A stretch of DNA of 64,000 bases from Clostridia bacterium (lineage in GTDB: Bacteria; Bacillota; Clostridia; Christensenellales; Borkfalkiaceae): assembly GCA_021204625.1 (NCBI GenBank), contig JAJPZA010000120.1, positions 4,483 to 68,482 on the forward strand, given 5' to 3'. The notes under the pieces were generated by a model, which was given only the letters and a program-made list of their open reading frames with translations, did not search any database and had not been told where the DNA came from. Positions 44,459 through 50,866 of this stretch are shown here, piece by piece. Position 1 is the stretch's first letter; the number at the start of each line of letters is the position of its first letter. A program made the position numbers and the translations under genes.

Positions 44459-46222
44459 ATGAAAAATAGTATTGAAACTTATTTCATTCTGAAGGACTTC
44501 TTCTTTGCACAGGCTGCAATGGGGAAGTGCCTCAAAGGCGAGAGTTATATGAAGGCTCTTGCAGAGATATATGGCAGGGCGGATGACGCGGACAAGCTGT
44601 ACATGGCGGCCATGAGCGAGACGGAGATAGAGAGCGCGGCGGATTACAGGCAGGCCTGCCGTGTGGACCAATATATGGAAACTATGGCGGGGGATGACAT
44701 GTTCCCCTTTGAGGATGAAGATGAGGATGAGGACCAGTCTGCCCGGGACGCGGAAGACGGGGAGGAAAATCCGGAGGAAGATCTGGAGTCCCTCGGAATC
44801 ACGGAAGAGGATCTCATAGACATCAAGGGCAAGGCGTATGAGCTTGCGGAGAAGTACGGGATAGAGGCCGGAAGGAAGGATACGTGGATGGAGATACGGG
44901 AAAGGCTGGAGTCTCCGGCAGCGGCATATCTTGTGCCTGTAATGCGCATGAAGGGAATAGAGGAGTGCGCGCTGTACGTGTCTTATGACCGCGACGGCAA
45001 CAGGAGATGCGATGAGAAGAGATATCTCATGCCGGGCGTGAAGCTTCTGGAAAGGGCGGCCATGTGGAATGACCCCGTCTCATGCATGGCTCTCATATTT
45101 TTTGACTATGTCTACACCTGGGAAGGCCCTTCTTCCAACAGCTGGGACCATCTCACAGACAAGGACCTCTGGGTCAGCGTGCTTTGCGCCCTTGCAAAGG
45201 ATACGGCATTCAGCTCCATGGCGGAAGCGTATGCCCCGTCCAGGCATGAGGATTGGGACCTGGCGGAGGAGTGCGGCGTGCTTGCAGACCTTTTCCGCCT
45301 CAATGCGTCATACAAGCCGGACGTCGTGGACGAGGCCGCGGAGGACGTGCTGTACGCAAAGAATATGAGCCTTGCGGACAGGCGGAAGATTCTGTATGAC
45401 TCCGTCTCCAGGCGCTCTGCGCTCACCGGGCTTCCCGTCTCATCTTCAGAGGAGCCGGAGCCTTTGTATCTTTCATTCCTTCCGGAGGACGTCCCTTTCG
45501 GAAGGGTCAGCGAGGCGGAAATGATACGCCGCGCCGTGAATGCGTATGCGGAATACATGGATGAGGAAGGGAGCAGGCCGCTGTGCCTCGTCACGGACTC
45601 AAGGTATCTCAGGGAGAAGTATGAGCGCTTCTTCACGGAGGAATACTTAAGGTGGGGGGATGCCGCCACGGACGTCATACGCCTTTCCGCGTGCACGGAA
45701 GCGGACGTGGATGAAGTGTCCTCAAACGTCTTTCTGCGCTCATATGACCCCTCAAGGCCCAATGTGAGGATCATAGAGATGTGCGGGTCTATGGAGCCTG
45801 CAGTGAAGAGGCATGCCGTGAAGTTCATCTCAACGGAGGGCCGCATGGCATACTTTCTCAAGGACAGGCAGGTAACGGCTGACATCACCCACATCATGTC
45901 CATAGTCTTCACGGACTCCTCCGGAAAGGAGTTTGCGGAGAATTACTGTGACGTCCTGGATCTGGAGCCCATAACGGAATTTAAAGAGAAGGATCTGGCA
46001 TTAAAGGATCTTCTTGAGAAGGCGGGATGGTACGGAAGCACGGCCGCGGAGGCATACGGAAAGCTCCTTTCCATGGACACGGACAGGGCCGCGGAGGTTT
46101 TGCAGAGGGCGGCAGGAAAGGCGCGCGCGCATGGAGAGCATGAGATCTCCATGAAGGATATAGAAGAGGTCTCCCGCGGAAGGGAGTCAGAATATTTCGG
46201 ACTTAGAAGGAGGGTGCTGTAG
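44459..46222 (+). CDS. Hypothetical 587-aa protein: acidic linker, helical middle, and a C-terminal AAA+-like region (with lid) that lacks a Walker A motif
   Basis: AAGGAG RBS. The EDEDEDEDQ acidic stretch. The C-terminal EFKEKDLALKDLLEKAGWYGSTAAEAYGKLLSMD...HEISMKDIEEV resembles SpoVK/CbbX-type AAA lid regions. No GxxGxGK motif was seen. Confidence 0.6.
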   Translation: MKNSIETYFILKDFFFAQAAMGKCLKGESYMKALAEIYGRADDADKLYMAAMSETEIESAADYRQACRVDQYMETMAGDDMFPFEDEDEDEDQSARDAEDGEENPEEDLESLGITEEDLIDIKGKAYELAEKYGIEAGRKDTWMEIRERLESPAAAYLVPVMRMKGIEECALYVSYDRDGNRRCDEKRYLMPGVKLLERAAMWNDPVSCMALIFFDYVYTWEGPSSNSWDHLTDKDLWVSVLCALAKDTAFSSMAEAYAPSRHEDWDLAEECGVLADLFRLNASYKPDVVDEAAEDVLYAKNMSLADRRKILYDSVSRRSALTGLPVSSSEEPEPLYLSFLPEDVPFGRVSEAEMIRRAVNAYAEYMDEEGSRPLCLVTDSRYLREKYERFFTEEYLRWGDAATDVIRLSACTEADVDEVSSNVFLRSYDPSRPNVRIIEMCGSMEPAVKRHAVKFISTEGRMAYFLKDRQVTADITHIMSIVFTDSSGKEFAENYCDVLDLEPITEFKEKDLALKDLLEKAGWYGSTAAEAYGKLLSMDTDRAAEVLQRAAGKARAHGEHEISMKDIEEVSRGRESEYFGLRRRVL

Positions 46223-46226
46223 TAAT

Positions 46227-47984
46227 ATGAACAGAAACAAGGAGAATGCAGGAATGAATAACGGAAGCGGGAACGGCGGGTCCCGCAGGGGGTCCCGCAA
46301 GGACGTATACACCCGCATGATGCGCGGGTATGAGAACACCGGCCTTGTAAAGGCGCAGGACATCCCGTCCCCCGTCTCATATGAGGACCTTCCCTCCAGG
46401 GACGGACACGGCGTGCTTATTGCGAATTACAGGGGAAAGGACGGGAGATTAAAGCAGCTGTTTTCCAGGAAGGACAACCACGTGTGCGTGGTTGCGGCCA
46501 CGAGGCAGGGCAAGACTACGTCATATGTCATTCCTGCCATAGACTCATACGCCGTGCAGGAGAACAGGAAGAGCCTCGTCATCGCAGACCCCAAGGGGGA
46601 GATATACAGGTCCAGGGCGGAGAGCCTTAAGGCTCAGGGATACAAGGTGCTTCTGCTCAATTTCAGAGACTTCACGCACAGCGAGTTCTGGAACCCCCTT
46701 ACGGCCATATATGACAGGTACATGGATTACCTCAACGTGTTTGGTTCCGTGGAGCTCAGGCGCGGTCCGGAGGAGAAAAGGGGCCTGTATTACAAGGACA
46801 GGCTCTATACGGATCAGGAAGAGCTGGACAGGGACTTGAGCCATGACTCCGCCATTATCATGGATGACGTTGAAGGCATGACAGATGATTTCGTAACCCA
46901 GATGATTTCAGTGGATGACAAGGAGGACCCCATATGGGAGGAGGGCTCCAGGGACATCTTAAAGGCCATTCTTTTAGGGATGCTGGAGGACGTCACGGAC
47001 AAGAGGAATCCCGTCACCCGGGACATGTACAACCTGGACACCGTGGTCAACATTTCCCTCACATTCGGGGAGCGCGAACACGGGCCTGCGGACGGAGGCT
47101 ATTTTGACCACCGCGCAGATTCCTCCAGGGCTCTCAAGTACGCGAAGCAGATTATTCTTGAGACATGTGACAGGACCCGCTCCAGCTATCTCGCCGTCTT
47201 CACGGACAAGATCCGCGAGTTCCGCGAGACTACGGTCCGCCGCATAACCCAGACCACAACCATAAACTTTGAGGACTTCACAGGCGAAGCCCCCGTGGCC
47301 CTCTTCATAGAGTTCAGGGATGAGCTTCCCGCCCATTACAAACTCATCGCCCTCTTTGTATCCCAGCTCTATACATACCTCATACAGCAGTCCTCCGGAT
47401 TAGAGCGCAACATGCTCAGGCGCGGCGTCATGTTCATCCTGGACGAGTTCGGCAACATGCCGCCCTTGGAGAGGTTCGGGACCGTCATCTCAACATGCGC
47501 GGCCCGCAACATATGGTTCACCATAATCCTGCAGTCATACTCCCAGCTCACAAGCGTGTACCATGAATATTCCGCCACCATTCTGGACAATATGAACGTC
47601 ACCGTCTTCATGGGTTCCAACAATCCGGACACCACGAAGAGCTTTTCAGACAAGTGCGGGAAGCACACCCGCATATCCCCCGTGTGCGCCTTGGGCGGCA
47701 GCAAGAAGGAGATAGGGGCCGTGGAGTACGAGACCATCCCCGTAATGCCCGTTTCAACCCTCTCGGCCCTCAGGCCCGGAGAGTGCGTCATAACCGAAAT
47801 AAACACCGGCTATGTCCTTCTGTCCCGCCTGGAGCCCTGCTTCATGTGCAAGGAATACGCGTCCGCCCCTGAGGCGGATGAGCATTCATACGCATCATCT
47901 GTCTCGGCCATGGATGAGCGTTTCCATTACCGTGTCCCCAACTATCTCGCCAGCCGTGCATCCTGGGACGGAGAAGACTATTGA
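46227..47984 (+). CDS. VirD4/TraG/TraD-family (type IV coupling protein-like) P-loop ATPase without transmembrane helices
   Basis: Walker A AATRQGKTTS, ADPKGE, FWNPL, Walker B FILDEFGNM, and RNIWFTIILQSYSQL. The N-terminal 90 aa are polar (N/G/S/R-rich) with no hydrophobic helix. Confidence 0.8.
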   Translation: MNRNKENAGMNNGSGNGGSRRGSRKDVYTRMMRGYENTGLVKAQDIPSPVSYEDLPSRDGHGVLIANYRGKDGRLKQLFSRKDNHVCVVAATRQGKTTSYVIPAIDSYAVQENRKSLVIADPKGEIYRSRAESLKAQGYKVLLLNFRDFTHSEFWNPLTAIYDRYMDYLNVFGSVELRRGPEEKRGLYYKDRLYTDQEELDRDLSHDSAIIMDDVEGMTDDFVTQMISVDDKEDPIWEEGSRDILKAILLGMLEDVTDKRNPVTRDMYNLDTVVNISLTFGEREHGPADGGYFDHRADSSRALKYAKQIILETCDRTRSSYLAVFTDKIREFRETTVRRITQTTTINFEDFTGEAPVALFIEFRDELPAHYKLIALFVSQLYTYLIQQSSGLERNMLRRGVMFILDEFGNMPPLERFGTVISTCAARNIWFTIILQSYSQLTSVYHEYSATILDNMNVTVFMGSNNPDTTKSFSDKCGKHTRISPVCALGGSKKEIGAVEYETIPVMPVSTLSALRPGECVITEINTGYVLLSRLEPCFMCKEYASAPEADEHSYASSVSAMDERFHYRVPNYLASRASWDGEDY

Positions 47985-50253: not shown

Positions 50254-50380
50254 GGTCCCCCAAAGGGGAAATGTCTCCAAGCTGGCAGATGACATAAGAA
50301 TGCTGGACACAAAGCATACCCCTGGCATGGGGCCGTATTAAACGGCCTGCCCATAGAAGGACCGGAGGAGGATAAATGAG

Positions 50381-50866
50381 ATGGATAATGCAGATGAAAA
50401 CACCTTGACTGTCTATATGGTCCGTTTTGGAAAATACTATCATGTCTGTGCAGACAGAGCCGAAGCATTCTCTTGCGGCGCGGAGCTGGCGGAAATAATC
50501 AGGCAGAAAGGAGATTTGAAACAGCTGGACTCGCTCCTGGCATGTCAGTATATCCTGAATAAGGACCGGCTTGAGGAGATTATAAAGTTTGTCAAGGCAA
50601 ACAGCCTGGCTTATGCAGGCACAAGCGACCCCGATTTTGATGCGGAGCAGTTCCTGCGGCCGGCCATATATGATCCCCAGCATGCTGCAGCCCAGCAGAT
50701 CAATGCATTCTATGGCGGGCTGATAAAGTGTTTTGACCCGGACGAATTCTGGGTGGCAAGAGAAGTCGCCGGGAGGCTGTGCGCCAAGACGCCGGATTAT
50801 CCGGAGGAGGCGGATCCGCACGGACACATACAGCAGATGGAGATAGACAGGCTTTCTTTTGACTGA
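50381..50866 (+). CDS. Hypothetical 161-aa protein (last gene of the operon)
   Basis: GGAGGAGG RBS. No motif recognised. Confidence 0.55.
   Translation: MDNADENTLTVYMVRFGKYYHVCADRAEAFSCGAELAEIIRQKGDLKQLDSLLACQYILNKDRLEEIIKFVKANSLAYAGTSDPDFDAEQFLRPAIYDPQHAAAQQINAFYGGLIKCFDPDEFWVAREVAGRLCAKTPDYPEEADPHGHIQQMEIDRLSFD

Follow-up and report, generated by a model that had tools for sequence, protein, structure and literature searches.

Type IV coupling proteins (T4CPs), such as VirD4, TraG and TrwB, are regarded as parts of secretion machines. Soluble paralogues of the related motor FtsK exist, for example SftA of Bacillus subtilis, and in Streptomyces an FtsK-like motor with a winged-helix (wH) reader, TraB, can suffice for transfer. 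Also T4CPs without transmembrane (TM) segments, which need a separate membrane partner, are a recognised class, with TraJ and TraI of pIP501 as an example (PMC7431656). The locus described here is a five-gene operon, P1 to P5 (Table 1), in a 64,000-nucleotide stretch of DNA, hereafter the window, from a Clostridia bacterium (assembly GCA_021204625.1, contig JAJPZA010000120.1, positions 4,483 to 68,482 of the forward strand). Its second gene encodes a protein which by sequence and modelled fold is a T4CP with intact ATPase motifs and no membrane anchor; the gene before it encodes a predicted Lon-like pseudo-ATPase and those after it proteins with FtsK-gamma-like wH modules. This P1–P2–wH core recurs among Christensenellales-like Clostridia and some Bacilli in a set of 58 loci.

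Pfam analysis of P2 gave matches to T4SS-DNA_transf (PF02534, E = 6e-43) and TraG-D_C (PF12696, 2.6e-23), and the FtsK_SpoIIIE motor domain (PF01580) was not found at E ≤ 0.1. The best NCBIfam model, NF045973 of the VirD4-like CD1115 family, scored 240.3 bits, below its curated cut-off of 250. Both the Walker A (G95-K96-T97) and the Walker B (D406-E407) motifs were unchanged throughout a homologue alignment of 25 sequences. The AlphaFold2 (AF2) model of P2 had a predicted local distance difference test score (pLDDT) of 85, and its Foldseek ranking was headed by Cag-beta (8dol, 9e-20) and TrwB-deltaN70 (1e-15), with HerA and DotL after them. No TM segment was found before Walker A in P2 or in any relative of at least 36% identity (Kyte-Doolittle threshold 1.6, 19-residue windows). 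The sequence relationships suggest that P2 was derived from a Gram-positive conjugative coupling protein, and public annotation names P2-type genes 'type IV secretory system conjugative DNA transfer family protein'.

Thousands of P2 homologues were found when 5.8 billion proteins were searched; the top 120 were almost all about 560 aa long and belonged to metagenome-assembled genomes (MAGs) of Clostridia. Loci of 80 species-representative genomes were fetched, and their open reading frames (ORFs) were called and clustered. Counts were made on the 58 loci with a P2 identity of at least 36%, that is, 57 species genomes and the window. A P1 homologue was present directly upstream of the motor in 49 of the 58 loci, and a wH protein was the next downstream gene in at least 43; the window and locus L008 were mis-scored as wH-negative, as spurious ORFs intervene in the simple gene calling. 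In the database gene calls of relatives the P1 and P2 genes overlap by 4, 14, 11 and 11 nt. Co-occurrence of all five genes, which a sequence-only reading of the window had proposed to check, was thus upheld for the P1–P2–wH part across the loci but not for the complete set, which was not conserved elsewhere and includes the unique P5.

The motors fall into two sets with different surroundings. The soluble-motor set, formed by the loci with at least 36% P2 identity together with L068 at 33%, has no TM helices in the motor. The second set, with 32–34% identity, has a motor of about 670 aa with two N-terminal TM helices, and its neighbours are type IV secretion system (T4SS) genes: a pilin, a TrbL-like protein and a 1400-aa VirB4/TraG-P-loop ATPase. 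Such T4SS gene clusters were absent from all 58 soluble-motor loci, and the clade-wide loss of TM helices coincides with this changed neighbourhood. Homologues within T4SS loci, for which a check had been proposed, were among the fetched loci only these TM-bearing cousins, none of them at 36% or above. The view that the operon is not a conjugation apparatus also held, since no T4SS genes were found in the large window ORFs scanned or in the 58 loci. The gene order of the T4SS set, as seen in L071–L087, is pilin, an unknown protein of about 500 aa, T4CP, an unknown protein of about 350 aa, TrbL-like protein, the VirB4/TraG-P-loop protein of about 1400 aa and a small STAS-domain protein (examples at L075:6031-6438 and L072:9604-13683); it is unusual to find a STAS protein beside an ATPase of conjugation.

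P1 begins with a helical region that contains Sel1-like repeats, continues as a Lon-type AAA+ module and its lid, and ends in a disordered C-terminal tail. As a single sequence it had no match in Pfam, NCBIfam, PADLOC or PHROG, and word-indexed homologue searches, both with P1 alone and with a 31-sequence alignment, gave P1 itself only. It shares 27% identity over its full length with the protein encoded ahead of the L001 motor (E = 1e-39), and 25% over 320 residues with the equivalent protein of L003. An exhaustive search of representatives found 154 P1 representative clusters at E ≤ 1e-3, nearly all with a length of about 510–560 aa, and some fragments. When the family profile was compared with PDB sequences, the N-terminal third matched the Sel1 repeat protein 6ok3 (5.9e-10), and the C-terminal half matched only Lon proteases of yeast, human and bacterial origin (1e-3 to 7e-3), along a stretch running from after Walker B via sensor-1 into the lid. 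Also the AF2 model (pLDDT 88.4, predicted TM-score 0.86) had LonA/LONP1 as its best Foldseek matches at 1e-5, followed by RuvB and ClpC. The P-loop position reads CLVTDSRY in P1 and SDSxY in the family consensus, a DE Walker B is missing, and the chain ends after the lid without an S16 protease domain. From sequence and model, P1 is predicted to be a Lon-like AAA+ protein which can neither hydrolyse ATP nor cut protein. It is fast-evolving, with about 20–28% identity across the family.

In relatives, the gene after the motor carries canonical Pfam FtsK_gamma domains (PF09397; 4e-19 and 9e-19). A wH hidden Markov model (HMM) was seeded on these matches, iterated within the fetched loci and built without P3. 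It recovered 49 of the 1380 ORFs, and all but two of these were either a motor or its immediate downstream neighbour; this near-exclusive recovery of motor-adjacent ORFs serves as an internal control on the specificity of the model. The HMM located modules at residues 17–47 and 86–143 of P3 (protein E = 4.8e-9) and at residues 1–63 and 93–151 of P4 (domain E = 9.4e-13 and 3.7e-13), and the wH genes of L089 and L090, which were fetched later, scored with it too. A profile of the divergent N-terminal wH type, with the P3 and P4 modules included, had FtsK-gamma as its top six PDB matches (best 2j5p, 1.5e-6). As single sequences P3 and P4 had no direct Pfam or other family match and no PDB match, and an iterated search from their extra N-terminal wH module remained confined to the clade of the window and L008. 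In two relatives, L058 (767 aa) and P0093 (834 aa), motor and wH module are fused.

Beyond the wH modules, P3 has an acidic helical C-terminal part, and P4 an acidic linker and a helical C-terminal part. The N-terminal module of P3 can be aligned with P4 and with a 291-aa protein of L001, and P4 clusters with a 291-aa protein of L008 (27% identity, E = 1e-27). Judged by similarity, P4 corresponds to the motor's downstream gene in the rest of the family, and the P3–P4 pair seems to have arisen through duplication of the wH gene at this locus. The part of the wH protein conserved family-wide is the N-terminal module, and the remainder varies. For P5 no homologue was found in the 80 genome loci and no match in any library or PDB; on these comparisons it is an orphan acidic protein unique to this locus.

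For the individual proteins, the sequence-only reading was largely borne out. The AAA+-like C-terminus of P1 with a lid and no Walker A agrees with the Lon profile match and the LonA/LONP1 Foldseek result, and the assignment of P2 to anchorless VirD4/TraG-type P-loop ATPases with the Pfam matches, the invariant Walker motifs and the lack of TM segments. The identical layout of P3 and P4, with two FtsK-gamma-related wH modules each, was recovered by the wH HMM, the PDB profile agreed with the relationship to FtsK-gamma, and P5, presented as an unknown, matched nothing anywhere. A split FtsK-style motor with a separate reader was a fair architectural description, and it is reinforced by the L058 and P0093 fusions.

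A gene of the ClpP family was present within three genes upstream of the motor in 31 of the 58 loci. This ClpP paralogue is full-length (Pfam 8.9e-58), and its Ser-His-Asp triad was intact in all 32 sequences aligned with a B. subtilis ClpP reference. Clp ATPases dock onto ClpP by means of a flexible (L/I/V)-G-(F/L) tripeptide (PMC8745299). In P1 the last 10–15 residues are disordered in the model, with pLDDT below 50, and at least 65 of 90 family members have [Y/F/I/L/V]-G-F within their last 16 residues, the motif being visible in most of the others. It usually continues as G-G, giving the family consensus [Y/F/I/L/V]-G-F-G-G; the window P1 has Y-F-G-L and L001 has V-G-F. A bridge from P1 to ClpP is suggested because the G-F tail resembles the Clp docking tripeptide and the neighbouring ClpP is full-length and has an intact triad. 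The paralogue and the docking-like tripeptide point towards proteolysis rather than a bare DNA pump, as far as sequence can tell. A reading of the ClpP gene as belonging to phage or capsid packaging was rejected, as there were no PHROG matches and no relatives on phage or viral contigs, and the gene is full-length with motifs of the housekeeping type. In L003–L006 (5238-7411), genes of 357 and 359 aa without a Pfam family stand ahead of ClpP, and in L089 (5564-11810) genes of 1282 and 797 aa without a Pfam family follow the wH gene, all of them being part of the operon concerned; the accessory gene set of the family is far wider than that of the window.

The loci of the family are set in ordinary chromosomal surroundings. 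In a set of 150 proteins that flank 45 of the loci, the Pfam families met most often were ASCH, AAA, HAD, ABC, phosphoglucomutase and others of the same ordinary kind, and integrases, relaxases and T4SS parts were absent from the 25 commonest. PADLOC matched a handful of these 150 neighbours, many of them as generic AAA/ABC ATPase-like proteins. In the syntenic pair L021/L024 the identity was 91% for the flanks, 96% for P2, 95% for ClpP and 83% for P1; in the pair L029/L034 it was 55% for the flanks, 88% for P2 and 93% for ClpP. Some MAGs have two paralogous systems (L014/L045 and L036/L038). The identical protein P0051 was listed in 106 index blocks of the assembly collection, and 24 contigs with it were read. 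None of 72,556 plasmids and 50,697 phages contained a match to P1, the best plasmid matches of P2 were at most 29% identical and in T4SS-linked conjugation loci, and IMG/VR contained P2 relatives no closer than 31%. Apart from the doubled copies in some MAGs, which speak against it, the picture resembles that of a chromosomal system passed on stably, and not of a defence cassette that moves fast.

The five-gene operon is real: the coordinates, strand and ribosome binding sites (RBSs) were all as the sequence-only reading had described them, with AGGAG/GGAGG found 6–10 nt before the ATG of each of the five genes. All five proteins are acidic, and their Kyte-Doolittle 19-mer maximum never exceeds 1.35, so that none has a membrane-like segment. 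The intergenic gaps are 4 nt (P1–P2, which are translationally coupled), 274 nt (P2–P3), 45 nt (P3–P4) and 127 nt (P4–P5), and the hairpin at 51460-51497 is the first strong plus-strand terminator for the operon. The P2–P3 spacer (47985-48258) is GC-rich and has equivalents of 438 nt in L001 and about 330 nt in L089; in most other relatives, unlike these three, the wH gene is directly 3' of the motor. ORFs within the spacers showed no conservation, and a 91-aa ORF between P2 and P3 was rejected as a gene, being unconserved in L001 and L089 and having a low-complexity translation. A short motif, GACC(C)TGTCTCATG, after the P2 stop is common to the window and L001.

Table 1. Coordinates of the operon and of other features in the window
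Feature	Position	Strand	Length	Remarks
UvrD-type helicase with topoisomerase-type (Top1) C4 zinc ribbon	14569-17565	+	998 aa	Pfam
Integrase-like remnant	39631-40404	-	257 aa	Central domain only; Pfam Phage_int_M 3.5e-7
Helix-turn-helix (HTH)-methyltransferase-like gene	42568-43719	+	383 aa	N-terminal excisionase-like HTH; PADLOC MTase_II 5.5e-15, residues 89-198
Leader and promoter-like region	43856-44458	+	~550-nt leader	
Promoter-like site	43856-43883	+		AT-rich
Small ORF in leader	44050-44310	+	86 aa	Arg-rich; own RBS
P1	44459-46222	+	587 aa	ORF
P2	46227-47984	+	585 aa	ORF; start 4 nt past P1 stop
P3	48259-49170	+	303 aa	ORF
P4	49216-50253	+	345 aa	ORF
P5	50381-50866	+	161 aa	ORF; last operon gene
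Likely intrinsic terminator closing the operon	51460-51497	+		13-bp hairpin, then T-run
UvrD/PcrA-like helicase	51698-53860 (ORF from 51440)	+		GajB-like in PADLOC, 3.6e-32
SAM-methyltransferase, then PLD-nuclease and ResIII/Helicase_C protein	54068-57231	+	204 aa; 873 aa	
Type II-A Cas9	57866-61951			Followed by cas1, cas2, csn2

The window is chromosomal, with leuB, an aconitase-family (leuC-like) gene, ilvD, ilvB-like genes and radA. In comparison to L008, it shows conserved flanks around a diverged island: amino-acid identity is 96% for radA on the left and 81% for the methyltransferase at 54068 on the right, and inside the island 30% for the integrase-like protein, 50% for the HTH-methyltransferase-like protein, 28% for P1, 52% for P2 and 27% for P4. 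The integrase remnant stands right beside radA, at the radA-proximal edge of the island. It is followed by about 2 kb (40404-42568) without a gene in the database gene calls, and L001 has a gene-free stretch of 4.2 kb at the same place. Together, the remnant and the gene-free stretch look like the decayed end of an integrated element that targeted the radA side. No convincing att or direct repeats were found flanking the island. These comparisons suggest that the system of the window clade rides in an old integrated island, which has been swapped or has diverged as a block; here the ClpP gene is absent, the wH gene is duplicated and the orphan P5 is present.

Of a type II DNA methyltransferase, the 383-aa protein retains no more than the first third. 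This truncated form appears to be conserved and not freshly broken, since L008 has a 50% identical counterpart in the same place. The leader (43877-44330) includes blocks about 85% DNA-identical to L001, in islands that otherwise have 27–52% protein identity. Its 86-aa ORF is 51% identical to a 93-aa ORF of L001 (E = 7e-24). Every indel between the two keeps the reading frame, and they have their first 14 codons in common, with zero synonymous changes. For the conserved leader, a small gene, a regulatory RNA and a recombination joint are all conceivable; Rfam gave no match for it or for the whole window, where also no tRNAs were found, and a metagenome scan with the conserved leader block gave zero matches.

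The flanks described by the sequence-only reading were found as stated, with the HTH and truncated methyltransferase-like gene upstream and the UvrD-like and PLD-ResIII helicases and type II-A Cas9, Cas1, Cas2 and Csn2 downstream. The UvrD-like helicase has weak matches to RelE/HigB toxins in its N-terminal region (PHROG 1.2e-3, Pfam 0.012), and it is present in the window island and missing from the sister island of L008. The methyltransferase/PLD-ResIII pair, immediately upstream of type II-A CRISPR-Cas, has about 80% DNA identity in L001 and may by itself constitute a defence pair. The relaxase which had been placed 30 kb away is most likely the 998-aa protein, and that identification was not supported: Pfam sees only the UvrD helicase and Top1 zinc ribbon in it and no relaxase domain, and no relaxase family was found among the large window ORFs scanned. 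Two adjacent plus-strand ORFs at 634-2940 (768 aa) and 3151-5409 (752 aa) have no Pfam family at E ≤ 1e-3.

The interpretation preferred here, with about an even chance of being right, is that the family encodes a cytoplasmic, T4SS-independent ATPase complex derived from a T4CP, which uses P1 as a scaffold and the wH proteins for targeting, and which processes nucleoprotein; from the sequence evidence, the machine is probably coupled to ClpP. P2 would form the hexameric motor. The wH proteins, here P3 and P4, would hold this motor on DNA, or on a target that is itself bound to DNA, by analogy with the part played by gamma in FtsK; two relatives have the motor and the wH module fused. P1 would be an inactive ring or scaffold whose flexible [Y/F/I]-G-F tail connects the motor with ClpP, and the window copy with its F-G-L would need a ClpP encoded elsewhere in the genome. 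The outcome could be that proteins on DNA are extracted, or translocated and degraded, or that DNA is pumped while being cleared. The bolder form of this scheme, in which a T4CP-derived hexamer on a dead Lon-like ring docked to ClpP is aimed by the wH modules at DNA-bound proteins and constitutes a new ATP-dependent protease or nucleoprotein remodeller, is considered rather unlikely. One version of it would be an anti-conjugation or anti-plasmid immunity that captures and degrades the incoming relaxase, proposed because coupling proteins evolved to recognise relaxase-DNA complexes.

Several observations weigh against the preferred interpretation. The sequence similarity between P1 and Lon is weak (E about 1e-3), and the Foldseek TM-scores of P1 are low, about 0.3, as expected for multi-domain models. 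The basis of the ClpP link is gene adjacency and a short motif, of which the first residue is Y or F in about half of the members and not L/I/V, and which sits on a C-terminal tail while the known docking motif is on an internal loop. The window operon itself has no ClpP gene, and a six-frame HMM search of the window and L001 found no remnant of one. P3 and P4 are strongly acidic overall, and the base-reading residues of FtsK-gamma are only partly kept in them, one recognition-helix Arg being retained and the other positions differing when compared by eye; the modules may bind protein rather than DNA. The conservation pattern of the wH protein would also be in keeping with an adaptor that binds to the machine by its wH module. 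In addition, the ORFs of the fetched loci were called by a simple longest-ORF rule, so that the counts are approximate.

A role in anti-phage or anti-plasmid defence, with the wH-guided soluble motor pumping or stripping foreign DNA or, in a variant, recognising and destroying incoming relaxase-DNA complexes, is somewhat unlikely. The window copy lies between the integrase remnant and the UvrD-like helicase, the PLD-ResIII helicase and the type II-A CRISPR-Cas genes; this island beside radA, helicase-nuclease genes and CRISPR-Cas fits a conflict with foreign DNA, which is a fit rather than a demonstration. The replacement of the segment by a 27–52% identical variant between 81–96% identical flanks is typical of defence hotspots, and the two paralogous systems of some MAGs, the high variability of the downstream partner past its N-terminal wH module and the HerA/FtsK-superfamily motors that serve known defence complexes and appear among the structural neighbours of P2 all agree with such a role. 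However, PADLOC gave only the weak mad8 match of about 35 bits and no other MADS gene, defence-model matches among the 150 neighbours were few, many of them generic, with no clear enrichment, the core of the syntenic pairs was as conserved as the flanks or more, and the conserved core has no nuclease or other obvious effector. The defence role raised by the sequence-only reading was thus favoured by the window neighbourhood but not by the family, where neighbours were mostly ordinary and the syntenic pairs vertically inherited. The same vertical inheritance, with P2 and ClpP highly conserved, and the ordinary chromosomal neighbours would suit a lineage-specific housekeeping function, either a soluble FtsK/SftA-like helper in segregation and dimer resolution or a DNA-associated quality-control protease. 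Broad presence across the species representatives, canonical FtsK_gamma domains, otherwise typical of chromosome translocases, and the existence of soluble FtsK paralogues such as SftA also speak for it. Nevertheless, the components and partners differ between genomes, ClpP is present in about half only, some genomes have two copies, P1 evolves fast and the window and L008 copies are in a replaced island, and this explanation is distinctly unlikely.

Very improbable is a mobilisation module in which P2 would act as the coupling protein of an element, P3 and P4 would sit on an origin-like site and a helper T4SS would export the DNA. The Streptomyces TraB precedent, the integrase-like remnant in the window island and the descent of P2 from conjugative T4CPs would agree with it, as would the known pairing of anchorless T4CPs with a membrane partner, TraJ/TraI of pIP501 (PMC7431656). 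Against this, no relaxase, replication or excisionase family was detected in the five proteins or the island, att repeats were not found, and the integrase gene is a fragment. The loci of the family are vertically inherited and without T4SS clusters, integrases and relaxases are not among the 25 commonest flanking Pfam families, and ClpP has no place in such a module. The integrative mobilizable element, suggested earlier as an alternative, was not supported, with no relaxase found and the family absent from the plasmid, phage and viral collections searched. It is scarcely credible that the operon is a non-functional leftover of a decayed conjugative element: the truncated integrase, the degenerate methyltransferase-like gene and the gene-poor region at 40.4–42.5 kb would suit decay, but none of the five ORFs is broken and each has a strong ribosome site, the ATPase motifs do not vary, the P1–P2–wH order and coupling are conserved across dozens of species, and the identical P0051 occurs in 106 index blocks of the assembly collection.

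The family, with at least 154 P1 sequence clusters in dozens of gut Bacillota species, shows a repeated and stable recruitment of coupling proteins to what would be a purely cytoplasmic job, with partners never before seen beside such a motor. The current annotation as a conjugative transfer protein is misleading, as it suggests a conjugative element in the genomes of Christensenellales-like gut bacteria. If the ClpP link is true, the complex would be the first protease driven by an ATPase of the FtsK/HerA superfamily instead of a classical AAA+ ring, and if the wH modules read DNA, it would be a natural 'split FtsK' with the motor and the reader experimentally separable.

The claim that the system is undescribed held in the comparisons made. 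The P1–P2–wH combination had no description in PADLOC v2, Pfam, NCBIfam, PHROGs or the searched literature. In PADLOC-DB v2 only P2 had a match, to mad8 (35.5 bits, 1.9e-9), and P1 and P3–P5 had none. Membership of MADS, with the component requirements taken from 10.1101/2023.03.30.534895, was rejected on the basis of this weak match and the lack of mad6, mad7 or any other MADS gene. Also a relationship to Menshen was dismissed, as the 'TraG-like' of the Menshen paper is a reference-list entry only. With the HerA defence complexes Sir2-HerA and DUF4297-HerA, which belong to the same motor superfamily and are weaker structural neighbours of P2 (E about 1e-9), only the P-loop core is shared, and the operon has no Sir2, DUF4297 or nuclease effector.

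With FtsK/SpoIIIE, including SftA and TraB, the system shares an FtsK-HerA superfamily motor and a gamma-type wH module, and in L058 and P0093 the two are fused in FtsK order; the P2 motor, however, is on the T4CP branch, and the wH module is on a separate protein and often doubled. P1 has in common with the LonA and Clp-ClpP machines the Lon-type AAA+ fold with its lid, and it has a hydrophobic-Gly-Phe motif resembling the docking tripeptide and ClpP as its usual neighbour, but it lacks Walker A/B and the S16 domain, and ATP hydrolysis would have to come from P2. The closest likeness of P2 is to the T4CPs VirD4, TraG and TrwB, with which it shares the nucleotide-binding fold with an inserted helical domain and the Walker motifs. 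Unlike them it has no N-terminal membrane domain, VirB4, pilin, TrbL and relaxase genes are not nearby in any of the 58 P2 loci, and it has as partners a Lon-like pseudo-ATPase, ClpP and FtsK-gamma wH proteins, none of which is known from conjugation. An annotated member of the CD1115 family on a C. difficile plasmid is 729 aa long and adjoins a transmembrane conjugation protein of the pLS20_p028 family. TraJ of pIP501 is a soluble coupling protein like P2 (PMC7431656), but its gene belongs to a T4SS operon and its partner is the membrane protein TraI; P1–P5 have no membrane segment, and no T4SS is present. An analogy is offered by Cag-beta with CagZ, the best structural match of P2 in Foldseek, and by Legionella DotL with DotM/N, IcmS/W and LvgA, in which a T4CP has dedicated soluble regulators or substrate selectors; these complexes, however, supply a T4SS in the membrane, and P1, P3 and P4 have no relationship to the partner proteins in them. 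Every domain of the system is known, and it is their combination that would be new among the systems with a motor of the FtsK/HerA superfamily.

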